A DNA stretch of 64,000 nt from Bacilli bacterium (GTDB lineage Bacteria; Bacillota_I; Bacilli_A; RF39; UBA660): positions 107,064 to 171,063 of the forward strand of contig JAFWMN010000006.1 in assembly GCA_017513865.1 (NCBI GenBank). Direction: 5' to 3'. Position 1 is the first letter of the stretch. Every line of letters starts with the position of its first letter. The position numbers were made by a program, and so were the translations under genes. The notes beneath the pieces were generated by a model. The model saw only the letters and a list, made by a program, of their open reading frames with translations. It did not search any database and had not been told where the DNA came from. Of the stretch, positions 1-58,641 are shown piece after piece.

Positions 1-1
1 T

Positions 2-370
2 TCTCATACCGAATCTGATACGAATGTAACTTACACAGTTACTTTAAGTAAGCCAACAGACTTTTATGAGTTTACTATCACTGTAATAAATGATGGTAAT
101 TTTAATGCTAATTTAACTTCAATCACAATGCCAACACTTACTGCACAACAAGCAAAATATTTGACTCATACTGTTACATATAACGGTACAGATTATAATT
201 CATCTCAAACAGGATTAGCTGTAGCTTTACCTTGTACTTCTGGTTCTAATACTAAAGTTTTAAAGGTTAGAGTTGCTTATATTCAACCTGAGTATAGTAC
301 AGATTTACCAACGACAGCTGATGCAACAGTAACTTTAAATGTAACTCTTCATTACGATCAAGTAGCTTAA
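2..370 (+). CDS. 3' fragment of a secreted beta-rich protein (gene starts upstream of the window). It shares a Thr/Asn-rich 'DFYEF...NDGNF' pattern with the 2605..4167 protein, making it a possible TasA-like / SipW-cognate fibre protein.
   Basis: The frame is open from base 2 to the stop at 368-370. The composition and motifs resemble the downstream secreted protein, and it lies immediately upstream of a SipW-type peptidase. Confidence 0.45.
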   Translation, partial: SHTESDTNVTYTVTLSKPTDFYEFTITVINDGNFNANLTSITMPTLTAQQAKYLTHTVTYNGTDYNSSQTGLAVALPCTSGSNTKVLKVRVAYIQPEYSTDLPTTADATVTLNVTLHYDQVA

Positions 371-418: not shown

Positions 419-1561
419 ATGAAAAAAAATGCGAAAATCATTTATGTTTGTGAGTTAATACTATTTATATATTTAATTTTGTTTGCAGTCTTAATAAATG
501 TAGTATCGCCATTTTTCAAAAGTGTTTCCACAATAGTGATTCTTGTGGTTATACTAGCTTTGTTAATTGCTTTTTTTGGCATGTCAAAAGATAAAAATTA
601 TTTACGAGGAACATCAACTAGGATTGTTATTTCTGGGTTGATGGCTTTCTTTCTAATAATATATGCATTAGGTATTCTTTTAGGATTTAATAAAGGTTAT
701 ATTTATAATGATTTTTTTACTTTAATGAAAAACATAATTTTTATTATATCTTTTACGGTGCTGCTTGAATTAATAAGATATTTAATTGCTAAAAATTCTT
801 TCCAGAATGGTAGATTAATCTTTGTTTTTACTATTTTAAGTGCAATTCTTAATATATTGTTAGAAATAAATATGGGCGTTTTGTCAACGTATGAGGATAA
901 ATTTATTTTTTTGAGTAAAGTTATTTTTCCAGTTGTTGCTGGAGAAGCTTTGTGCAGTTTTATGACAGTTAAAACCGGAATGTTACCTAGTGTTGTATAT
1001 AAATTGGTTATGAATTTATATATTTATATACTTCCTATTGTCCCTGATTTAGGAAATTATATTTATTCCGTTGCCAATATTCTTTTGCCATTTATTTTAT
1101 ATAGTGTTTTAAACAGAATAATTGTGCACTATGATAAAGAAAAAGAGCAATTAAGGAAGATTAATTTAGTTGTTTTTGTGACACCATTAATTATTCTGTT
1201 TTTGATTTTAGTAGCATTAGTTTCTGGAATTTTTAAGCATAGAATAATTGCGGTTGCTTCTAATTCAATGGCACCTACTTATAGACGTGGTGATGCTATT
1301 ATATATGAAAAAGTAGATGTATCAAATTTAGAGGTTGGTCATATATTAGCTTTTAAGCGTGAAGGCCTTATAATAACACATAGAATTACAAAAATATGGA
1401 AACAAAATGGCAAATATTACTTTACGACAAAAGGCGATAATAATAAAGACGTTGACCTTTATACGCCAAAAGAGGAAGATGTCTTAGGAAGGGTTAGGAT
1501 GACTTTTAAATTAATAGGTTATCCAACAGTTATAATAAATGAATATTTTGGAAAGGAGTAG
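419..1561 (+). CDS. Archaeal/ER-type signal peptidase I (SipW-like, S26B) fused to a ~250-aa N-terminal polytopic membrane domain.
   Basis: The C-terminal ~120 aa carry SNSMAPT (catalytic Ser), ITHRI (His) and TKGDNN motifs typical of SipW/Sec11. The N-terminal part has about 7 hydrophobic segments. An RBS (AAAGGGG) precedes the ATG. Confidence 0.75.
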   Translation: MKKNAKIIYVCELILFIYLILFAVLINVVSPFFKSVSTIVILVVILALLIAFFGMSKDKNYLRGTSTRIVISGLMAFFLIIYALGILLGFNKGYIYNDFFTLMKNIIFIISFTVLLELIRYLIAKNSFQNGRLIFVFTILSAILNILLEINMGVLSTYEDKFIFLSKVIFPVVAGEALCSFMTVKTGMLPSVVYKLVMNLYIYILPIVPDLGNYIYSVANILLPFILYSVLNRIIVHYDKEKEQLRKINLVVFVTPLIILFLILVALVSGIFKHRIIAVASNSMAPTYRRGDAIIYEKVDVSNLEVGHILAFKREGLIITHRITKIWKQNGKYYFTTKGDNNKDVDLYTPKEEDVLGRVRMTFKLIGYPTVIINEYFGKE

Positions 1562-1565
1562 AAAA

Positions 1566-2618
1566 ATGAAAAAGTATAAGAAAAATAAGTTTTTTCAGTT
1601 TTTATTTCCTTTCCTTTTTATTATTGGAATAGTTCTTATTTTTTTTGGTTTTAGAGATCGAAAAATTGTTAATTTAAAGTATAAGGAAGATAATAAAATA
1701 AATTATAATGTTTACTTGAAACCTAATAGTTTTTTTGAAACGCCATATTTAGGTGAAAACGAAACATATATTGCTAGTTTGATAGATTATATTGATATTC
1801 ATTTTCATTATGGAATAAAATATGATAAAAAGTTTTCGGGAAACTATAAATATAAATTTGTTGCTTTAGTTAGCGCTAATAAAAAGGATGCGAATGGTCA
1901 TTATTGGCAAAGAGAATATAGTTTAACCGAATTTAAAAATTTTGATGCAGTTAATCAGGATTTTATAGCAATAGATGATAATGTTAAAGTTAATTATGGT
2001 ACCTATAATGATATTTTAAATCAATTTAGAAAAGAATATGATTTAACAACACAGGGCGAATTAAAGGTTATTATGAAGGTAAGCAGTAATTTTCAGTTTA
2101 CCGAAGTAAAAGAACCTGTAGTTGATGATAGTGAACTTAATTTATCAATTCCTTTGTTAGAACAAGCTTTAGAACTTTCTATTAATAAAGATGTTTCTAA
2201 TGAAAGAGATGTTGTTTCTTTTGTTGAGAGTGATAATAGTATAATTTATATTTTCTTTAAAATTTTTGGAACACTTTGTATTATTTTTTCAATTGCTGGC
2301 TTTGTGATTGCTACAAAACGAGCAAGGGAATTTAGAAAAAACAATTTATATACGTTAAAACTTGATAAAATACTTAAAAATTATGACAGCATTATTGCTA
2401 ACGTTAAAAAGCTTCCTAATATTAATGATTTCAAAAAAATAGAAATAAGTAGTTTTGAAGAACTTTTAGATGTTTATAGTGAAGTTAGAATGCCTATAAA
2501 TTGTTATCAAGGAAGATATGAAGCTCTATTTGTTATAATTAATAATGAAACAGCATGGGTTTATAAGTTAAAAAGGTCAGACTTATCTGAAAAGAGTGAT
2601 GACTATGAAGAAGATTAA
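1566..2618 (+). CDS. Bitopic membrane protein of unknown function, with one N-terminal and one C-proximal TM helix, encoded in the SipW operon.
   Basis: An AAGGAG RBS precedes ATG 1566 (the track ORF starts earlier, at 1539). Hydrophobic segments are FFQFLFPFLFIIGIVLIFFGF and IYIFFKIFGTLCIIFSIAGFVIA. It overlaps neighbouring genes in an operon-like way. Confidence 0.55.
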   Translation: MKKYKKNKFFQFLFPFLFIIGIVLIFFGFRDRKIVNLKYKEDNKINYNVYLKPNSFFETPYLGENETYIASLIDYIDIHFHYGIKYDKKFSGNYKYKFVALVSANKKDANGHYWQREYSLTEFKNFDAVNQDFIAIDDNVKVNYGTYNDILNQFRKEYDLTTQGELKVIMKVSSNFQFTEVKEPVVDDSELNLSIPLLEQALELSINKDVSNERDVVSFVESDNSIIYIFFKIFGTLCIIFSIAGFVIATKRAREFRKNNLYTLKLDKILKNYDSIIANVKKLPNINDFKKIEISSFEELLDVYSEVRMPINCYQGRYEALFVIINNETAWVYKLKRSDLSEKSDDYEED

Positions 2619-4167
2619 TTTAAATAATAACGATAAAAAAACTATTAATATTAATATCTTTATGTCGGTATTGATTGTAGTTGTTTTATCGTTTATTTCT
2701 GTTGGTTATGCTTTATATGGTCAGAATTTAAGTGTGAGTGGTAATATTGGTTTTGGTCTTCAGGGTAAGATTGCGATTACTGATGTTACATTAACTTCAT
2801 CTACTAATGTTAGATCCGACAGTATTCCATCTTTTACTGATGATAGTGTTGATTTTAATTTGACTTTTGAAAAAGCTGCTGGGTCAACAGATCCGAATTA
2901 TCAAGCTGTTTATGAAATTACGATTTCTAATGGAACATTTTATGATTTTGAGTTTAATTTAGCAAATTTTCAACCAATTATAACTAATTCTCATGGAATA
3001 AATGTTGATCCGTCTTTTTTATCTACTTCTTTAAGTGGTATAAATATAGGGGATATGATTCCAGCTGGCGAGGATGTTACTTTTACGTTAACTTTGGATT
3101 TTAGACCTGACGTTGACGATACTTATTCAGTTAGTGGTGATATGGAAACAGAATTGGTAGAAGAACCACATGGGAGTCTTTTGGGATCTGTCCCTGAAGG
3201 TGCGCAAGGTGATTTGAAGGAAAGTTTAGGACATGATATTGTCTCTTTTACAGTAACAGTTATTAATTCTTATCAATCAAGTAGAACTTTTAATATAAAT
3301 ATTGCTGATACGAGTCATTTTCAACTTACTAATTCTGATGGTACTCCGCTTAGCAATTTTACAATAGCTGGAGGAACAACAGACACATATACTTTTTATG
3401 TAAAAAGAGTTAATGGAGCAATTTTTGGTGCTTCAAGTTTTACTACAGGAATTTATCTTTCTTATTCAGAAAATTCTAATGTTCCTTGCGGGAACGTTAC
3501 TTTATTTGTTGATGAAACGCAAATTGATGATACGACACCGCCACAAATTAGTGATGTAACTGCTGTTCAAAATAATGCGACAAGTAGCACAACTACTAAT
3601 GATACGGTTGGTTCAGTTACTGTTTCTTGGAACGGCGAAGATGCTGAATCTGGTGTAAAAAAATACTATGTTATTGTGAAAAATTCTAAAGGATCAACAA
3701 CTTATGAAACTACTGACAACACACCATCTTTAACGATTACGGGGCTTATAGATGACAGTAATTATACTTTCAAGGTTTATGGTGAAAACAACGATAATTA
3801 TAAGCCTAACGATAGTCAAATAGCTGTTGATTCGACAAGTCCTGGTGTTTGTTCAATGTCTACATCTTATTCATTTGATTGGCGTTATACAGTTGCATTT
3901 TCATCTGACACAAATAATATGCGAGAGTTGTCAACCACAGCCGTAAATAGGGGATATAATTATACCGTGACTCTTAGAGCCTCTAATAATTATAATCTTC
4001 CTAGTTCATTAAATTATGTAACCATGGGTGGGAATGAAATTACTTCTACCTCTGGGACAGAAACAGGACATTATAAATATACAAGTAGTAGTGGTTCTTT
4101 TAATGTATATGGGGTTACCGGAGATATTGTATTAAAACTAACACCAACAAGAAGTGGTGGATGTTAA
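2605..4167 (+). CDS. Large secreted protein with a SipW-cognate-type N-terminal signal (…ISVGYALYGQNLSVSG…) and a fibronectin-III-like domain. It is a likely SipW substrate or fibre/adhesin subunit.
   Basis: A basic N-terminus and hydrophobic core are followed by a GYAxY motif resembling the TasA/camelysin class. The FN3-like segment is 'TPPQISDVTAV…VSWNGEDAESGVKKYYVIV…YTFKVYGEN'. The start could be 2596 (GTG), 2599 or 2605; the AAAGAG RBS favours 2605. Confidence 0.6.
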   Translation: MKKINLNNNDKKTININIFMSVLIVVVLSFISVGYALYGQNLSVSGNIGFGLQGKIAITDVTLTSSTNVRSDSIPSFTDDSVDFNLTFEKAAGSTDPNYQAVYEITISNGTFYDFEFNLANFQPIITNSHGINVDPSFLSTSLSGINIGDMIPAGEDVTFTLTLDFRPDVDDTYSVSGDMETELVEEPHGSLLGSVPEGAQGDLKESLGHDIVSFTVTVINSYQSSRTFNINIADTSHFQLTNSDGTPLSNFTIAGGTTDTYTFYVKRVNGAIFGASSFTTGIYLSYSENSNVPCGNVTLFVDETQIDDTTPPQISDVTAVQNNATSSTTTNDTVGSVTVSWNGEDAESGVKKYYVIVKNSKGSTTYETTDNTPSLTITGLIDDSNYTFKVYGENNDNYKPNDSQIAVDSTSPGVCSMSTSYSFDWRYTVAFSSDTNNMRELSTTAVNRGYNYTVTLRASNNYNLPSSLNYVTMGGNEITSTSGTETGHYKYTSSSGSFNVYGVTGDIVLKLTPTRSGGC

Positions 4168-4170
4168 TAA

Positions 4171-4204
4171 AAAACACTATTTTTTATGAATAGTGTTTTT
4201 TTTG
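4171..4204. terminator. Bidirectional rho-independent terminator between convergent genes.
   Basis: A perfect 11-bp inverted repeat (AAAACACTATT / AATAGTGTTTT) has a 7-nt loop and is followed by a T-run on the + strand. Confidence 0.7.
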
Positions 4205-4860
4205 ATAATCAAAAAAGCGGTTATTATAAAGAGAAAAATGCTGAAAATTTGGTTTGAGGAAATTAGTTCTTTAATGTGACTATACCTTAGAAAATCTAAG
4301 GAAAATTTAAGGATTGAAATTAAAAGTAAAGTGATATAAGAAATGTTTTTTTTGTTTTTATTTGTATTACAGAAAAGAAATAAAATAAAAAACACGAAAG
4401 ATTCTAATAACTGTATAGGGAATAGGGGAATATTTAATCCATGAGGGTAGGTTACGCTGAAAGGTCCATTATAAGGAATGCCATAGCAACACCCAACAAA
4501 GAAACATCCAATTTTTCCGAAACTATAAATTAGCGGTAATGAAAGAATTGAATATTTAATTATTTTTTTATCTGAAGGATATATTTTTTCATAAATTAAT
4601 GGTGATATGATAACGCCAATTAATCCCCCATATGAGGAAAGACCACATTCTAAAAACTTTTTTTTAAAGCCACTTACAACAAATGTGTAAGTTTTAGCAG
4701 ACATATAGGTGATAATGAAGAAAAATATAAAAAAAAGTAGGATATTTTTTTTAGATATATTTTCATTTTTTAATGCAAAAAAAACATATAAAATGCCAAT
4801 GATAATTGAGAAGGACATCATTATTTTATAAAAAGGAAAAGGAATGTTATGTATTATCAT
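4177..4860 (-). CDS. Lgt-family (prolipoprotein diacylglyceryl transferase-like) paralog, short at 227 aa, with a mutated signature motif.
   Basis: It is colinear with Lgt (YGGLIGVII aligns with Lgt HGGLIGAIL). The Lgt signature GRWGNFxNxEAHG is replaced by GKIGCFFVGCCYG, and the C-terminal region is truncated. Confidence 0.55.
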   Translation of the reverse strand: MIIHNIPFPFYKIMMSFSIIIGILYVFFALKNENISKKNILLFFIFFFIITYMSAKTYTFVVSGFKKKFLECGLSSYGGLIGVIISPLIYEKIYPSDKKIIKYSILSLPLIYSFGKIGCFFVGCCYGIPYNGPFSVTYPHGLNIPLFPIQLLESFVFFILFLFCNTNKNKKNISYITLLLISILKFSLDFLRYSHIKELISSNQIFSIFLFIITAFLIIKKNTIHKK

Positions 4861-5084: not shown

Positions 5085-5924
5085 ATGATTTTACTAGATG
5101 GAAAAAAAGCCAAAATAAGTATTTTAGAAGAATTAAAAGAGGAATTATTAAAACTTGATAGAAAATTAGGATTAACAGTTATTCAAATTGGTGATGATCC
5201 AGCCAGTAATGTTTATGTTAGGAATAAAGGTAAGATGGCCAATGATTTAAATTATAATTTTAATCATATAAAACTTGATGATGACATTACTGAAGAAGAT
5301 GTTTTAGCTTTAATTAATAAGCTTAATAATGATGATATAGTTGATGGTATTTTAGTTCAAATGCCTATACCTAAACATTTAGATTCTAAAAAAATTCAAA
5401 ACGCGATTATTTCAGTTAAAGATGTTGATGGACTTACTGATATAAATATGGGTAAGCTTGCTCATGGAGTTGATTCTTTGGTCCCTTGTACAGCCATGGG
5501 AATATTAGATTTATTAAGATTTTATAACTTAGATGTTGAAAAGAAAAATGTAGCTATTGTTGGTAGAAGTGATTTAGTTGGTAAACCTTTAGCAAGTTTA
5601 TTAACTAATAATAATGCGACTGTGACTTTGTGTCATTCTAAAACAGAAAATTTAAAAGAACATACGAAACTTGCGGACATATTAGTAGTAGCCGTTGGAA
5701 AACCTAAGTTAATAAATGATGAATATATAAAAGAAGGAGCAGTAGTAGTCGATGTTGGAATAAACCGTACGGAAGAAGGTTTGGTTGGTGATGTCGATTT
5801 CGAAAAGGTTAAAGATAAGGTAAGTTATATTACACCAGTTCCTGGAGGAGTTGGTCAAATGACTGTAGCGGAACTTGGTAAAAACACATATAAAGCACAT
5901 GTGCTTAGAAAGAAAAAATTGTAG
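5085..5924 (+). CDS. folD: Bifunctional methylenetetrahydrofolate dehydrogenase / methenyl-THF cyclohydrolase.
   Basis: Hallmark FolD motifs are present: IQIGDDPASNVYVRNK, VPCTAMGILDLL, GRSDLVGKPLASLL, VGINR, PVPGGVGQMTVAEL. Confidence 0.92.
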   Translation: MILLDGKKAKISILEELKEELLKLDRKLGLTVIQIGDDPASNVYVRNKGKMANDLNYNFNHIKLDDDITEEDVLALINKLNNDDIVDGILVQMPIPKHLDSKKIQNAIISVKDVDGLTDINMGKLAHGVDSLVPCTAMGILDLLRFYNLDVEKKNVAIVGRSDLVGKPLASLLTNNNATVTLCHSKTENLKEHTKLADILVVAVGKPKLINDEYIKEGAVVVDVGINRTEEGLVGDVDFEKVKDKVSYITPVPGGVGQMTVAELGKNTYKAHVLRKKKL

Positions 5925-6063
5925 ATTTATTTAAGATTGAGGATAATAAAAAGGAAAATATTAAGATTGATAAAATTTTAAAATAAGAGAGCAAGATTTT
6001 TAAATCTTGTTTTCTTATGCTATAAATGTTAGAATATTTTTAGTTTTAGAAAGGAGGCTTTCC

Positions 6064-8010
6064 ATGTTTGAACTTGTATCAAATTTTAAACCAACTGGTG
6101 ATCAGCCAGAGGCTATAAAAGAGTTAGTTGATGGTGTGCGTGAAGGGAAAAGGCAGCAGGTCCTAAAAGGGGTTACTGGTTCTGGTAAAACCTTTACAAT
6201 GGCTAATGTTATAAAAGAACTTGGCAAACCTACTTTAGTTTTAGCGCACAATAAGACCTTAGCAGGACAACTTTATGCAGAGTTTAAAGAATTATTTCCA
6301 AACAATCATGTATGTTATTTTGTATCTTATTATGACTATTATCAACCAGAAGCATATGTGGCTAAGACTGACACATATATAGAAAAAGACGCTTCTATTA
6401 ATGATGAAATAGATGAGCTTAGACATTATGCTACGGCATCACTTTTAGCTCATAAAGATGTTATTGTTGTTGCTTCAGTTTCTTGTATTTATGGTATAGG
6501 TGAAATCGAAGATTATAAAGAAAAAGTATTATTTTTAAATGTTGGTGAAAATGTTAATAGAGATAAAATACTTGAAAAATTAGTTGATATGCTTTATGAA
6601 CGAAACAATATTGATTTAAAAAGAGGAACTTTTAGAGTTAGAGGAGATATTTTAGAAATTGTTCCCATAGGACAACATTCACATGGAATTAGAGTTGAGT
6701 TTTTTGGGGACGAAATTGATAGAATTTCAGAGTTTGATTTAGTAACGGGATCATTAATAACTGATAAGAAATCATATACTTTATTTCCTGCAAGTCATTT
6801 TGTAACAAGTGAGGATAAGCTTAACGTCGCTATTGAAAGAATAAAAAATGAACTAGATGAGCAGTTAAATAAATTTAAAAGTGAAAATAAACTTTTAGAG
6901 TATCAAAGATTAAAAGAGAGAACTAATTATGATATAGAAATGCTTAGTGAAACAGGGTTTTGTAGAGGGGTTGAAAATTATTCTAGGCACTTAGCTTTAA
7001 GAGAAGCTGGAGTTGCCCCAACCACTTTAATAGATTTTTTTGGTGATGATTTTTTACTTTTTGTAGATGAATCTCATGTTACATTACCTCAAGTTAAAGC
7101 AATGTATAATGGAGATAGAATGCGTAAGCAAGCGTTAGTTGATTATGGGTTTAGACTTCCTAGTGCTTTAGATAATAGACCGCTTACTTTTTCAGAGTTT
7201 GAAAAAAAATTAGATAACGTTATTTATGTTTCCGCAACACCAGGTGATTATGAAATAGAAAAAAGTTCTAATAGGGTTATTGAGCAAATTATAAGACCAA
7301 CCGGATTACTTGATCCAGAAATAGAGGTTAAACCAACGAAAAATCAAATTGATGATTTGGTTGAGCAAATACATAAGCAAAATGAGAAAAATGAAAGAAC
7401 CTTGATAACTACTTTGACTATTAGAATGGCTGAAGAACTTACGGTTTATCTTAAGGATTTAGATATTAAAGTTGCTTACTTGCACAATGAAATTAAAACT
7501 TTAGAGAGATTGCAAATAATTCATGATTTGCGTAGTGGCAAGTACGACGTAGTTGTAGGAATAAATTTACTTAGAGAAGGAATAGATATACCGGAAGTTA
7601 GCTTAATTGCGATAATGGATGCGGATAAACAAGGGTTTTTAAGAAGTGAACGCAGTTTAATTCAAACAATAGGAAGAGCGGCCAGAAATGCTTCTGGAAG
7701 AGTAATTATGTATGCTGATGAGGTTAGTTCAGCTATGGATGTTGCTATTAAAGAGACAAATAGACGAAGAAAAATTCAAGAAGAATATAATGAAAAGCAT
7801 GGCATTGTTCCTAAGACGATTGTTAAAGCAATTAGAGAAGTTATTTCTAATAATATAGAAATTAAAGAAAAGAAACAAAAGATATCTAAGAAAGATCGCA
7901 ATCTTATGATGATAAATATTGAAAAAGAAATGAAAGAAGCGGCCAAAAATTTAGACTTTGAAAGAGCTATGGAACTTCGTGACATATTATTTGAAATGAA
8001 GAGTGAATAA
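6064..8010 (+). CDS. uvrB: Excinuclease ABC subunit B.
   Basis: The N-terminus is [18 protein letters not shown] with a GVTGSGKTF Walker A, followed by helicase motifs and a C-terminal UvrB/UvrC interaction helix ([11 protein letters not shown]). An AAAGGAGG RBS precedes ATG 6064; the track ORF begins upstream at 6007. Confidence 0.95.
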
Positions 8011-10679: not shown

Positions 10680-11483
10680 ATGAAATCAGTTATTGATTTG
10701 GGTTTTGTTTCTATTCATATTTATTCTTTATGTATTTTAATAGGTGTTTTACTATCTTTTTATTTAATTTTAAAAGAGAGCGAAAAGCATGGCTTTGATA
10801 AAGAAAAAATTTCAGATTTGCTTTTTTATACGATTATTTTTGGAATAATAGGTGCGAGATTATATTATTGTTTATTTAATTTAGATTATTATTTATCTAA
10901 TCCTTTTTCTGTTTTGAAAATATGGGAAGGGGGATTAGCTATACATGGAGGGATTATTGCTGGATTAATTACTATTTTTGTATATGCCAAAAGACATAAA
11001 TTAAACGTTCTTTGGCTTTTAGATTTTATAGTAGTTGGTTTAATAATTGCTCAAGCTATTGGTAGATGGGGAAATTTCTTTAATGGTGAGGCTCATGGGT
11101 CACTTACGACATTGTCTCATTTAAAAGGAATGAATTTACCTAGTTTTATTATTAAAGGAATGAAAATTGATGGAGTTTATTATATCCCAACCTTTTTATA
11201 TGAGTCTTTATGGTGTTTACTAGGGTTTATAATAATGATTTTAGTAAGACATAAAAAGAATATAAAAATAGGATATTTAACTGGTTTTTATTTTATTTGG
11301 TATTCTTTAGAAAGATTTTTTGTTGAAGGAATGCGTACAGATAGTTTAATGTTAGGTTTATTTAAAATCGCGCAAATAATCTCTATTATTATGTTTATAT
11401 GTGGTATTGTTATATTTATATATAGTTTTATTAATTCTTCAAACTATAATAAAAAACTTGAAAGGAATGATAAAAATGACTAA
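10680..11483 (+). CDS. lgt: Prolipoprotein diacylglyceryl transferase.
   Basis: 'LKIWEGGLAIHGGIIAGL' and the Lgt signature 'GRWGNFFNGEAHG' are present, along with 'PTFLYESLW…EGMRTDSLM'. Confidence 0.92.
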   Translation: MKSVIDLGFVSIHIYSLCILIGVLLSFYLILKESEKHGFDKEKISDLLFYTIIFGIIGARLYYCLFNLDYYLSNPFSVLKIWEGGLAIHGGIIAGLITIFVYAKRHKLNVLWLLDFIVVGLIIAQAIGRWGNFFNGEAHGSLTTLSHLKGMNLPSFIIKGMKIDGVYYIPTFLYESLWCLLGFIIMILVRHKKNIKIGYLTGFYFIWYSLERFFVEGMRTDSLMLGLFKIAQIISIIMFICGIVIFIYSFINSSNYNKKLERNDKND

Positions 11484-12420
11484 ACTTGCAGTTTTAGGGG
11501 GAGGAACAGGTCTTAGTATATTACTTAGAGGTCTAAAAAAACTTCCTTTTGATATTTCTGCGATTGTTTCTGTTTGTGATGATGGTAGTAGTACCGGAAG
11601 ACTTAGAAAAGAATTTAATACGCCAGCTGTTGGGGATATTAGAAAAGTTCTTATAAGTTTGTCAGAAAATGAAGAAACTGTTAAAAAATTACTTGATTAT
11701 CGTTTTGATACTTCTAGTGATTTGGATGGACATGCGCTTGGGAATTTATTATTAACTGGAGCAGATCATGTTGCTGGAAATATGTCAGGTGCTATTGAGC
11801 TGATTAATTCTTTACTTAATTTAAAAGGTAAAGTGATCCCGTTAACTGAGGAAAATGTTACCTTGGTAGGCAAAATGTATGGGGGAAAAACTGTTGTTGG
11901 TGAACATAACATAACAGAATCTAAAGAAAAAATAAAAGATGTTTTTTATAAAAAAATGCCTAAAGCAAACGAGGAAGTTTTAGAAGCAATTAAAGAAGCA
12001 GATGCTATTATCCTTAGCATGGGAAGTTTATTTACTAGTATTATTCCAAATTTGATTTGTAAAGATGTAGTTAAAGAAATAGATAAATCGACTGCAAAAA
12101 TAATATATGTTTGTAATATTATGACGCAGCCGGGAGAAACAGATGATTTTTCGGTTACAGATCATGTAAAACTAATAAACAAGTATTTAGGAAAAAGGAA
12201 AGTTGATGCGGTTGTTTTAAATAACGGTAGTATTTCACCAGAAATTATAAAAAAATATGAAACAACGGAACAAAAAGATTTAGTTAAAGTAGACCGTGAA
12301 AAAATAAATAAAATGAATGTTGATATTATTGAAAATGATTATATTTTAATTGAAAACGAAATTATTAGACACAATGCATTAAGGGTTGCTATTGATGTTA
12401 TTTCATATTTGTTAGATTAG
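11476..12420 (+). CDS. yvcK: Gluconeogenesis factor / UPF0052 (YvcK/GlmR, CofD-like).
   Basis: 'MTKLAVLGGGTGLSILLRGLK…VSVCDDGSSTGRLR' is present. It starts with an ATG overlapping the lgt stop, with RBS AAAGGAAT. Confidence 0.88.
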   Translation: MTKLAVLGGGTGLSILLRGLKKLPFDISAIVSVCDDGSSTGRLRKEFNTPAVGDIRKVLISLSENEETVKKLLDYRFDTSSDLDGHALGNLLLTGADHVAGNMSGAIELINSLLNLKGKVIPLTEENVTLVGKMYGGKTVVGEHNITESKEKIKDVFYKKMPKANEEVLEAIKEADAIILSMGSLFTSIIPNLICKDVVKEIDKSTAKIIYVCNIMTQPGETDDFSVTDHVKLINKYLGKRKVDAVVLNNGSISPEIIKKYETTEQKDLVKVDREKINKMNVDIIENDYILIENEIIRHNALRVAIDVISYLLD

Positions 12421-12431
12421 AGGGTGATTAC

Positions 12432-13346
12432 ATGTCATTTACGGGAGAAGTTAAAGATGAAGTAAGCAAATTAGAATTTATGGAAGCGGAGAATATTTCT
12501 GAACTTTCAGCTATTGTAAATTCTTTTTATGATTTTTCAGGGCAAATTAAAATAATTACTGAAAACAATAGTGTTGCCCGTAGAGTATATTCACTTTTTA
12601 AAGAAATTTATCATGTATATCCTAGTGTTTCGGTTAGAAAAGGGTATAATTATAGTCGTAAACTTTTATATATTGTTGAAGTAAAAAATAATGTTGACCG
12701 TATTTTAAAATCTTTGGGTATTACAAAATCTTTGCCAGAAAATTTTATTTGGTCTGATGAAGATCTTGTTAGAGCTTATTTACGAGGGTTGTTTTTGGTG
12801 TGTGCGAGTGTGAATGATCCAAAAAAATCAAGGTATCATTTAGAATTTAATTTAAATGATTTAAAATATGCTAAATTTGTTCAAAAATTATTAAATGGTT
12901 TTAATTTGAATAGTAAGGTTTTACACCGTGATAATAGATTTATGGTTTATATTAAAGAAGCCGAAAAAATAAGCGATTTACTTAGAGTAATAGGGGCAGT
13001 TAAGGCTGTATTATATTATGAAGATATTAGAATTTATCGTGATCATAAAAATATGACAAATAGATTAAACAATTGCGAACAAGCTAATGTCGATAGAATA
13101 ATTGAAACAGCAAATTCACAAGTAAAAGATATAGTCTTTTTAGAAAAAAATGACGCTTTTGATCTTTTAAGTGATAAAGAAAAAGAAGTGGCAATTTATA
13201 GAAAAAAATACCCCGACGCATCATTATTAGAACTTAGTCAGATAATAAGTTTGGAAACAGGTAATAAAATTACCAAGTCTGGTTTATATCATAGATTTAA
13301 TAAGATTAAAAAATTCGCTGTGAGAATTAAAAACAAAATGAAATAA
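12432..13346 (+). CDS. whiA: DNA-binding sporulation/cell-division regulator WhiA.
   Basis: The N-terminus is MSFTGEVKDE. It shows the conserved yvcK-whiA order, a LAGLIDADG-like middle domain and a C-terminal HTH. Confidence 0.85.
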   Translation: MSFTGEVKDEVSKLEFMEAENISELSAIVNSFYDFSGQIKIITENNSVARRVYSLFKEIYHVYPSVSVRKGYNYSRKLLYIVEVKNNVDRILKSLGITKSLPENFIWSDEDLVRAYLRGLFLVCASVNDPKKSRYHLEFNLNDLKYAKFVQKLLNGFNLNSKVLHRDNRFMVYIKEAEKISDLLRVIGAVKAVLYYEDIRIYRDHKNMTNRLNNCEQANVDRIIETANSQVKDIVFLEKNDAFDLLSDKEKEVAIYRKKYPDASLLELSQIISLETGNKITKSGLYHRFNKIKKFAVRIKNKMK

Positions 13347-24730: not shown

Positions 24731-24814
24731 TTTTTAAAAAAATGTTTGCTACAATATATTCGCTTATGAATTTCTATGGCTTGATTTTTAAGTCATGGCG
24801 GAAGGAGAGATAAT

Positions 24815-41365: not shown

Positions 41366-42514
41366 GTGAGAAGACTTAAACGAAATAGATTTAAAAATCA
41401 AAAAAATATATTAATAATTGCTGTATTAGGTCTTTTTTCTGTATTTACGGTTGGCTATGCAGCTTTTCAAACTAATATTAGTCTAACGGCTAAAGGTAAT
41501 GTATCACCAACCGCAACGTATACAGTAGATGATTTAAAAGAGCTTGTTACAGTTACTGGTGATGGACTATATACGGATTCTGATGAGCAAGGTAGATATG
41601 TTTATAAAGGAGCAAGTCCTAATAATTATTTATCTTTAAATGGAGAAACATGGAGGATAATGAGTATTGAATCAGATGATACTTTAAAAATAATAAGAGA
41701 AAATTCAGTTGGAAACGTTCTTTTTGATCCAGGAAGAGCTTCTGTAATATCCGGCATAACGGCAAGTAATTCAGACGTGGGAACAAGGTATTCATCTTCT
41801 TCCTCTGATTATTGTTATGCTTCCTCATTTAACTTGGGATGTAATGTATGGGGCAGTAAAGACACAATGGCAGATTCTGGTGGGTCATTATTGCGTAATA
41901 CTCAAGGTGGTGCCAAGATTAAAAGGAGTGTAACTGATACAGTTACATATAATCTTCCGGATGATGAAGCTTATGTAAATGTTTACTTAAATGGTGGAAC
42001 TTATGCTGGTGTTACAGTCCCTGGATGGTATAGCACTTGGTCTAATAGTTTGAGTAATGTTGTTAAAAGTTATATATCAATTCATCTACACAATGTTGGT
42101 TTGGTTTCAAATACGAGTGGGCAACTTACAGCCACAGATATAGTTCAAGAACATACTTATACTTGGTGGGGAATTGTAGGTCTTATGAATGCTTCTGATT
42201 ATGTAAGGGCCAGTTCTAATTCCGCTTGTACTGGTGTTTATGCTTATGCAAATAATTCATCATGTTATAATAATAGTTCTTCACATAACTATTTAATGAA
42301 ATCGACAACCCAGTGGACAATAGCGCCCCTTTCTGGAGCTATACATCGTCCATGGGCAACTAATTCATCAAATCTAAGTTTTTTCAATGCTTCCAACGCA
42401 TATAGTGTTCGTCCGGTTCTTTATTTGTATGAGGGTGTTTTATTAAAAGGTGAGGGAACAATTTCAAAAATGTATCAAATTGCTAATACGGAAGTTTTTA
42501 TGCCAATTGCTTAA
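41366..42514 (+). CDS. Secreted Ser/Asn/Thr-rich protein with a SipW-cognate-type signal peptide (…FTVGYAAFQTNISLTAKG…).
   Basis: Its N-terminal motif is nearly identical to that of the 2605 protein. The C-terminal 'TQWTIAP…AYSVRPVLYL' is reminiscent of DUF1566/Lcl-like domains, though that is recall only. Confidence 0.6.
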   Translation: MRRLKRNRFKNQKNILIIAVLGLFSVFTVGYAAFQTNISLTAKGNVSPTATYTVDDLKELVTVTGDGLYTDSDEQGRYVYKGASPNNYLSLNGETWRIMSIESDDTLKIIRENSVGNVLFDPGRASVISGITASNSDVGTRYSSSSSDYCYASSFNLGCNVWGSKDTMADSGGSLLRNTQGGAKIKRSVTDTVTYNLPDDEAYVNVYLNGGTYAGVTVPGWYSTWSNSLSNVVKSYISIHLHNVGLVSNTSGQLTATDIVQEHTYTWWGIVGLMNASDYVRASSNSACTGVYAYANNSSCYNNSSSHNYLMKSTTQWTIAPLSGAIHRPWATNSSNLSFFNASNAYSVRPVLYLYEGVLLKGEGTISKMYQIANTEVFMPIA

Positions 42515-58565: not shown

Positions 58566-58641
58566 AGGGGAATAGTTCAGCTGGTAGAACGTCGGTCTCC
58601 AAAACCGAATGTCGTGGGTTCAAATCCTGCTTCCCCTGCCA
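58566..58641 (+). tRNA. tRNA-Trp (anticodon CCA).
   Basis: The cloverleaf has acceptor AGGGGAA/TTCCCCT, an anticodon loop CTCCAAA, a T-loop TTCAAAT and an encoded 3' CCA. It is 76 nt long. Confidence 0.9.

Follow-up and report, generated by a model that had tools for sequence, protein, structure and literature searches.

A stretch of 64,000 nucleotides from a Bacilli bacterium (contig JAFWMN010000006.1; the whole stretch is called the window) carries, close to its start, a gene in which a signal peptidase (SPase) of the SipW/Sec11 type is fused to a polytopic N-terminal membrane domain. Its open reading frame (ORF), 419..1561 on the forward strand, is uninterrupted, starts with ATG and is preceded by an AAAGGGG ribosome-binding site. 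The analysis described here points to a catalytically degenerate CAAX-protease (CPBP/Rce1/SpdC) fold for the membrane domain and places the gene in a conserved cassette with genes for secreted proteins. The fusion gene and the parts of its product are as follows.

419..1561, forward strand: fusion gene, 380 amino acids (aa) plus stop, encoding a CPBP-fold domain, a linker, a transmembrane (TM) anchor and a SipW/Sec11-type catalytic domain.
419..1126, forward strand: N-terminal eight-helix membrane domain (residues 1-236, the N-domain), predicted CPBP/Rce1/SpdC fold, catalytically degenerate, predicted topology N-in/C-in.
767..778, forward strand: codons for Glu117-Leu-Ile-Arg120 in helix 4, with the GAA and AGA codons read directly; resembles CPBP motif 1.
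1127..1159, forward strand: basic, predicted cytoplasmic linker from helix 8 to the anchor (residues 237-247, HYDKEKEQLRK); the lowest-confidence block of the full AlphaFold2 (AF2) model, with a predicted local distance difference test score (pLDDT) of 61.
1160..1228, forward strand: predicted ninth TM helix (residues 248-270), the signal-peptidase anchor, running from in to out; hydropathy maximum 3.28; aligns to the N-terminal TM helix of SEC11A/C.
1229..1558, forward strand: S26B catalytic domain, predicted to be extracytoplasmic (residues 271-380), with Ser283 at 1265..1267, His321 at 1379..1381, Asp340 at 1436..1438 and Asp346 at 1454..1456.

The first-pass annotation of this DNA had placed an S26B module in the C-terminal third of the 380-aa ORF, and profile, alignment and motif evidence all bore this out. 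Residues 249-376 match the NCBIfam model TIGR02228 (sigpep_I_arch, archaeal/endoplasmic reticulum (ER)-type signal peptidase I) with 89.9 bits, where the cut-off is 51.85. On NF046067, the equivalog model for Bacillus SipW, the fusion protein scored 60.3 bits, below the 190-bit cut-off of that model. The peptidase domain aligns to human SEC11A/C with an E value of 4e-14 as a single sequence and of 1.5e-19 (about 1e-19) as a family profile. The SxSM, HR and GDNN boxes are matched in this alignment, where SNSMAPTYRRGD corresponds to SGSMEPAFHRGD, ITHRI corresponds to IVHRV and TKGDNN is identical. In the fusion protein these motifs lie at residues 281-287 (SNSMAPT), 319-323 (ITHRI) and 337-342 (TKGDNN), and Ser283, His321, Asp340 and Asp346 are each kept in 98-99% of 222 full-length homologues. 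Judged by its sequence, the C-terminal third is a catalytically competent-looking SipW/Sec11-type (S26B) signal peptidase; cleavage of signal peptides is its putative activity, and the neighbouring genes carry a conserved candidate site.

The fusion is widely conserved. A word-indexed search returned 241 proteins at E<=0.001, and among the best 120 of these about 110 were 368-386 aa long and matched with ~98-100% query coverage and 41-100% identity. Searching with the N-domain alone (phmmer, 1.84 billion cluster representatives) gave 499 matches at E<=1e-3; the best 150 of these clusters were mostly 360-400 aa long with the N-domain at positions 1-245. A profile search of the diverse N-domain alignment against a 5.8-billion-protein index recovered the same fused family only; stand-alone CPBP relatives that could form a bridge were absent from its results. 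A single ORF is retained in more than 200 clusters with identities as low as ~25%, 11 contigs from independent samples carry the identical protein, and a genome scan with the full-length family alignment found the complete fusion encoded by 80 GTDB species-representative genomes. One carrier is a HiFi-assembled 1.34-Mb chromosome (OZ007025.1), which gives the architecture long-read support. Phyletic conservation, the species representatives and the HiFi chromosome together show that the fusion is not an assembly or frameshift artefact. The idea that a membrane-protein gene and a short SipW were joined by a sequencing or assembly frameshift could draw on the metagenome-type source assembly and on the canonical short SipW adjoining one related cluster, and its probability is close to nil against this conservation, which extends to the length of the linker. 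The fusion proposed by the first-pass annotation thus stands: no stop or frameshift splits it into two genes, and the ORF is single across homologues. The N-terminal extension is present in essentially all orthologues of the clade, but as an extension of SipW it is neither well known nor annotated.

The 80 host genomes are metagenome-assembled genomes of uncultured gut or rumen bacteria labelled Bacilli, Tenericutes or Erysipelotrichaceae; Candidatus Faecisoma, one named relative, is classed under Mycoplasmatota. Where homologues are named in databases, the name is just 'signal peptidase I [Bacilli bacterium]'. Homologues of 110-340 aa are mostly gene-call or contig fragments. Against a fusion kept almost everywhere, split versions came down to one confirmed stand-alone N-domain gene, at 1953..2660 of locus L084 (ERZ14209547 NODE_61438, coverage ~3.9). 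It encodes a 235-aa homologue that keeps LEELIRY and ends in a genuine TAA stop; an AbpX-like subunit gene precedes it, an rsmG-like gene follows, and neither a peptidase nor a DUF5305 gene is nearby. Either the gene is a true split or remnant form, or the contig, which has low coverage, is chimeric.

Other arrangements of the peptidase genes were seen in related loci. In locus L040 a short SipW of the canonical kind (194 aa, with a TM helix at either terminus; 4083..4667) lies ~1.3 kb upstream of the fused peptidase (5974..7140) and ~0.7 kb before the subunit gene (5344..5928), so that short and fused peptidases coexist in one genome. Second, divergent copies of the fused peptidase occur near the first at L009 1255..3544, at ~10740..12628 of both L032 and L052, and at L036 3..746. 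These copies are roughly 30% identical and retain the E..R pair on helix 4, which indicates paralogous cassettes; in L009 the gene order is inverted, with DUF5305 before the peptidase.

To the first-pass annotation, the N-terminal region was a set of about seven hydrophobic helices matching no family. For sequence models the absence of a match holds: residues 1-250 have no Pfam or NCBIfam match at E<=1, and 45 diverse family members scanned individually gave no consistent Pfam family. PF02517 (CPBP) specifically had no match at E<=1 for the window protein and none at E<=0.1 in the 45 members, and the N-domain alignment profile found no match among PDB sequences even at E 10. A fold could nevertheless be assigned by predicted structure. 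AF2 models built from homologue alignments reached a pLDDT of 93.8 and a predicted template modelling score (pTM) of 0.90 for the N-domain alone, against 86.2 and 0.63 for the full-length fusion. The domain was modelled with eight helices (residues 5-24, 31-53, 63-88, 99-125, 131-149, 158-185, 189-204 and 212-247) rather than seven, which with the peptidase anchor makes nine predicted TM segments. Its structural matches, each with score and extent, were:

S. aureus SpdC/LyrA (6u0o_A): 13.3; 216.
M. maripaludis Rce1 (4cad_C): 12.3; 211.
APH-1B: 8.1; 151.
Best unrelated hit: 7.3; 52.

In the model, the N-domain is therefore an eight-TM CPBP/Rce1/SpdC (CAAX-protease) fold. The best match, SpdC (LyrA; PDB 6U0O), shares 8-9% sequence identity with it. 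A canonical CPBP gene (EExxxR...FxxxH...HxxxN) was found neither in the window nor in ~1 Mb of related loci.

Residue conservation sets this domain apart from active members of the fold. CPBP proteases carry the motifs EExxxR, FxxxH and HxxxN/D (PMC12260438). The only invariant polar residues of the N-domain are Glu117 (222/222) and Arg120 (218/222). They are spaced i+3, and position 116 is Glu in just 16 of the 222 members. The catalytic His of motifs 2 (FxxxH) and 3 (HxxxN/D) is absent from the family: across 247 positions no His is conserved in the 222 members, the maximum frequency being 11%. Phe162 is conserved, and position 166, where FxxxH has its His, is Ser, Cys or Thr. Strong conservation is also seen at Gly85, Gly89/Phe90, Pro171, the P206-I-x-P209-x-L-G-x-Y214 loop and Pro224. 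We infer that the N-domain works without catalysis. Rce1/CPBP proteins (Abi, PF02517) differ from it in the same respects: PF02517 does not match, the motif 2/3 His are missing, and the spacing of the motif-1-like pair is different.

The predicted topology agrees with a peptidase acting outside the cell membrane. The charges of the loops fit an N-in orientation: the N-terminus reads MKKNAK, and helices 2, 4, 6 and 8 are followed by KDKNYLR, KNSFQNGR, K and HYDKEKEQLRK, respectively. The eight-TM domain, which obeys the positive-inside rule, is predicted to have both ends in the cytoplasm. Both ends of the eight-TM domain of Rce1 are likewise cytoplasmic. With eight helices arranged N-in/C-in, the ninth would put the catalytic domain and Ser283 at the outer surface, as a signal peptidase requires. 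The linker between the two parts has a fixed length (12 residues in 150 of 222 members; alignment positions 236-247) and a basic composition (median 5 Lys/Arg; alignment positions 236-249). Being so short, it must keep the anchor helix close to helix 8. Within helix 4, Glu117 and Arg120 belong to the half nearer the cytoplasm, across the membrane from the active site of the peptidase; the motif-1 glutamate of Rce1 has a comparable place, likewise on the fourth helix and in the cytoplasmic half of the membrane. In the full-length AF2 model, helix 8, linker and anchor are drawn as one straight helix and there are no inter-domain contacts.

The fusion gene lies within a cassette whose order is conserved in the full contig (L001) and in 80 related loci: one or several genes for small secreted subunits, the fusion peptidase, DUF5305 and then, in closer relatives, a large fn3 protein. 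Its other members in the window are:

1..370, forward strand: 3' part only of a gene for a small secreted, AbpX/TasA-like beta-sandwich subunit of 186 aa (full gene at L001 9392..9952); presumed main substrate.
1566..2618, forward strand: membrane protein of 350 aa with two TM helices, assigned to DUF5305 by PF17231 (52.4 bits; cut-off 29).
2605..4167, forward strand: large secreted fn3 protein, 520 aa; fn3 at 28 bits against a cut-off of 25; signal/cleavage motif SVGYA-LYGQNLSVSG, with the predicted cut after A.

The small secreted proteins are ~185-240 aa long and encoded by one to six tandem genes; almost every one of the 80 loci has these upstream of the peptidase. DUF5305 starts 4 nt past the peptidase stop, behind an AAAGGAG ribosome-binding site, and directly follows the peptidase in L001 and 79/80 related loci. 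The large fn3 proteins (520-800 aa) are encoded downstream of DUF5305 in most of the closer loci and are presumed to be a tip, minor or anchoring subunit and a second substrate. A promoter and terminator scan of the cassette gave counts equal to the shuffled expectation.

Profile comparisons suggest what the small subunits are. Aligned by hhalign to AbpX of P. abyssi, their family gave E 2.3e-4 and a probability of 44% over 130 columns, in register from the cleavage site. AbpX chains were also among the top sub-threshold matches of the small-subunit profile to PDB sequences (E 0.12 and 0.63), and among 33 members scanned for family models 10 matched DUF11, one Peptidase_M73/camelysin and two TIGR04089 (exported by SipW). 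The small subunits are thus probably donor-strand fibre subunits of the AbpX/TasA superfamily. The uncharacterised protein-sorting module suspected by the first-pass annotation does correspond to a dedicated export and assembly module, of a type that has already been described for Tafi and AbpX loci.

Several features of the cassette and its surroundings vary or stand apart. The small-subunit gene is expanded at L079 1033..5902, and also in L075, L038, L048 and L064, with up to six tandem paralogues upstream of the peptidase, which suggests antigenic or functional diversification of the fibre subunit. In the 801-aa large subunit of L010 (8413..10818), residues ~501-572 have weak Hint/intein-N-terminal matches (PF05203, E 0.007; TIGR01445, E 0.078); this region of the more distant large fn3 proteins could be an autoprocessing module or a chance match. 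Two lgt (prolipoprotein diacylglyceryl transferase) paralogues are found within ~7 kb, at window 4177..4860 on the reverse strand and at L001 20262..21065 on the forward strand, one of them converging on the end of the fibre cassette with a gap of 9 nt. Upstream of the window start, at L001 7040..9282, genes for a Fic-domain protein and a TMEM43-family membrane protein immediately precede the cassette. Farther along, the window carries an L31-Firmicutes ribosomal-protein leader at 24774..24807 on the forward strand (Rfam RF03156 with 35.0 bits, the gathering score being 33.3), which fits a host related to Bacillota, and a tRNA at 58566..58638.

Small subunits and the large protein have a candidate cleavage site in common, [VIL]-G-[FY]-A followed after the cut by x-[FY]. 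The signal of the small subunits reads M-x-K-x-x-N-x-Q, a hydrophobic region (h-region), M-S-V-G-F-A and then A-[YF]-x-x-T-L-N-I-N-G-T-A-T-V, and the Gly and Ala of GFA are among the sole invariant columns of that family. Over all loci, h-region-x-G-[FY]-A occurs in 93/95 small and 51/52 large proteins, and the second residue after the Ala is aromatic in 82 of 93 small and in all 51 large ones. By the -3/-1 rule, cleavage would fall after the Ala of GFA, which would make the aromatic residue P2'. TasA likewise has an aromatic P2', and a Phe at P2' is reported to make TasA SipW-dependent (PMC10269814). In P. abyssi AbpX the corresponding sequence is AIGLTYA, cut, QWSETLSLSATISTG, and the residues past the cut form the donor strand (bioRxiv 10.64898/2026.01.04.697558). 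A signal of the same type (LFSVFTVGYA, cut, AFQTNISLTAKGN) was also found in a 382-aa secreted protein encoded at window 41366..42514 on the forward strand, just after a ribosomal-protein/rpoA/rplQ block. This protein may be one more substrate, encoded at a distance of ~40 kb from the peptidase gene, in which case the motif would mark a small regulon-like class extending beyond the operon.

Known systems provide partial counterparts for each component of the fusion. With SipW of B. subtilis and the Sec11/archaeal-type SPase I enzymes (MEROPS S26B) it shares the catalytic family, the Ser-His(-Asp) residues and an N-in anchor directly before the catalytic domain, and with SipW also an operon with fibre subunits of the TasA superfamily (probably such in the cassette described here) and an aromatic P2' at the candidate cleavage site. 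It differs in its length of 380 aa, in the extra eight-helix CPBP-fold domain before the anchor and in having no C-terminal TM helix. AbpX loci of Bacillota, Chloroflexota and archaea were described in January 2026 as encoding an SPase I with ten TM helices and DUF5305 as an accessory (bioRxiv 10.64898/2026.01.04.697558). As described, that enzyme resembles the fusion in being polytopic and TIGR02228-type and in its neighbours, which include DUF5305, minor or tip subunits and a donor-strand subunit that in the case of the fusion is probably AbpX-like; nine TM helices are predicted for the fusion, and its lineage is that of gut Mycoplasmatota-like Bacilli. The preprint gives no identity for the membrane domain and contains 0 occurrences of CPBP, CAAX or Rce1.

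A dedicated SPase I with DUF5305 as its proposed accessory, sometimes fused to the SPase, is a feature of both Tafi and AbpX fibre loci (for AbpX, bioRxiv 10.64898/2026.01.04.697558). In the haloarchaeal Tat (twin-arginine translocation) fimbriae, TafD and TafG represent this pair at the locus of a donor-strand fibre, and by genetic evidence processing of the subunits needs the peptidase: deletion of tafD leaves TafA unprocessed, according to the Tafi literature. TafD differs from the fusion in having 4 TM helices, a second extracellular domain instead of a CPBP-like one, and Tat-pathway substrates.

For the membrane domain, the closest counterparts are two S. aureus proteins. SpbR is a CAAX-protease-like protein whose motifs (HELYMR, FIYLD and QIVAI) are degenerate and in which the E and R of motif 1 are kept and both His are lost; it binds the signal peptidase SpsB via the TM helix and extracellular domain of SpsB and modulates cleavage (PMC12260438). 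Here too a degenerate eight-TM CAAX-protease-like protein is coupled to a type I signal peptidase via the TM helix of the peptidase. The S. aureus pair, in contrast to the single polypeptide with an ER-type peptidase described here, consists of two separate proteins, its peptidase is P-type (Ser-Lys), and the effect of SpbR is inhibitory. SpdC, which is non-catalytic, serves as a scaffold by orienting SagB, a single-pass hydrolase, via the SagB TM helix (bioRxiv 10.1101/2020.05.21.109470). Its partner, unlike that of the N-domain, is a glucosaminidase and is not fused to it.

We therefore favour, with somewhat more confidence than doubt, a dedicated, active signal peptidase of a fibre-assembly cassette that is equipped with a non-catalytic CPBP-fold intramembrane scaffold. 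The cassette probably builds a surface fibre in uncultured gut bacteria. The Ser-His-Asp peptidase on the outer face would cleave the signal peptides off the neighbouring subunits at [VIL]-G-[FY]-A / x-[FY], and the cut would free an N-terminal strand, A[FY]xxTLNINGTATV, that is probably the donor strand for fibre polymerization. The His-less CPBP-fold domain, most likely a non-catalytic intramembrane scaffold, would hold the single anchor helix of the peptidase via the fixed 12-residue linker. It may also hold the hydrophobic core of substrate signal peptides or the TM helices of DUF5305, and so position or gate cleavage. The scaffold role is suggested because the degenerate CPBP proteins of S. 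aureus, SpbR and SpdC, scaffold single-pass enzymes, one of them a signal peptidase. The fusion would then be a covalent version of SpbR-SpsB and SpdC-SagB, with DUF5305 as a further accessory.

Several points weigh against this interpretation. Homology of the N-domain to CPBP proteins was not detected at the sequence level, and the relationship is drawn from predicted structure because the Pfam, NCBIfam and PDB-sequence profile searches were all negative. An E-to-R spacing of i+3, against i+4 and i+5 in motif 1, makes the equivalence of these residues with that motif uncertain. The absolute conservation of Glu117 and Arg120 within the membrane could mean a retained chemical function and not a structural salt bridge. 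The full-length AF2 model, with its pTM of 0.63, gives no support for packing of the anchor on the CPBP-like domain. The N-domain of L084, alone and with a true stop, may indicate that the domain can function without a peptidase. On the substrate side, cleavage after the Ala of GFA is a prediction of the -3/-1 rule, and the link of the small subunits to AbpX/TasA is weak by the hhalign probability and the PDB profile E value of 0.12 given above.

A more ambitious form of the scaffold reading, which we put forward tentatively and think more doubtful than probable, is that the fusion and DUF5305 form a bacterial multi-part signal peptidase complex. The dead CAAX-protease fold would be an intramembrane receptor for a special class of signal peptides, reading their h- and n-regions in the cytoplasmic leaflet, and the Sec11-like domain would cut at the outer leaflet. 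If this were true, the accessory subunits of the signal peptidase complex of eukaryotes would be a parallel case, and the CPBP-signal peptidase partnership seen in SpbR-SpsB would be ancient and widespread, not a staphylococcal peculiarity.

Alternatively, the N-domain could have a role unrelated to control of the peptidase, as a lipid or polyprenyl binder, as a localization or oligomerization module, or as a platform for anchoring or polymerizing the fibre, and the fusion would only ensure co-expression or co-localization. SpdC has been proposed to bind a lipid carrier in a membrane-open cavity (bioRxiv 10.1101/2020.05.21.109470), the stand-alone N-domain gene of L084 adjoins a subunit gene, and inter-domain contacts are missing from the AF2 model. 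We consider this unlikely, given that the domain is almost exclusively fused (in most of the best 150 clusters and in essentially all full-length matches) and that a linker of fixed length argues for a constrained geometry between the two parts.

The main rival is an active His-less intramembrane protease of the CPBP type, which would use Glu117 and Arg120 either as a fused signal-peptide peptidase, degrading the signal peptide that stays behind in the membrane once SipW has cut, or to make a second cut in the substrate. The fold belongs to a protease family, E117 is invariant and R120 98% conserved on helix 4 in the cytoplasmic half of the membrane, and fusing two sequential processing steps would be functionally sensible. 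This remains quite improbable on the residue evidence: the histidines of FxxxH and HxxxN/D are absent, no N-domain position has His above 11%, and the motif spacing is unlike EExxxR. Moreover, SpbR, SpdC and LnsB of S. aureus are non-catalytic proteins whose motifs are degenerate in a similar way, and no phenotype resulted when the E and R of SpbR were mutated (PMC12260438).

The first-pass annotation had also drawn attention to a Cys in a conserved-looking patch. This residue, Cys179, is present in only 125/222 members (56%) and does not behave as a conserved catalytic residue. Together with a downstream NR pair (N232, R233) in a polytopic domain, it might recall an exosortase/archaeosortase-like Cys transpeptidase that sorts proteins. 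That reading can hardly be right: besides the scatter of C179, position 233 is K, R or another residue, no His is conserved, no NCBIfam exosortase model matches at E<=1, the neighbours lack C-terminal sorting signals or TM tags, and the fold matches are CPBP proteins. Exosortase-like and Cys-catalytic readings were rejected on residue conservation, as the frameshift or mis-join artefact, less probable still, was ruled out by phyletic conservation.

The enzyme family and the kind of locus were already known, and one preprint notes that loci of this kind can encode a polytopic SPase. The points that seem new are the recognition of the membrane part as a degenerate CAAX-protease fold, its link to the SpbR/SpdC scaffolds, the definition of the substrate motif and the distribution of the fusion among gut Mycoplasmatota-like Bacilli. 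For annotation, the point is that these proteins are now labelled only 'signal peptidase I' and that their N-domain has no family model; the unexplained polytopic part of fibre-locus signal peptidases receives a predicted fold and a testable role. For the organisms, uncultured gut bacteria with small genomes, the result is a probable cassette for a surface fibre, marked by a clear cleavage motif; to our knowledge, no surface structures are known from bacteria of this kind. The fusion also offers a compact single-chain system for studying how a scaffold controls cleavage. Bacteria have many degenerate CAAX-protease homologues, most of which are unexplained. Two have recently been shown to scaffold single-pass envelope enzymes, one of these a signal peptidase, and a widely conserved natural fusion is independent 'Rosetta-stone' evidence for a general partnership between CPBP-like domains and signal peptidases.

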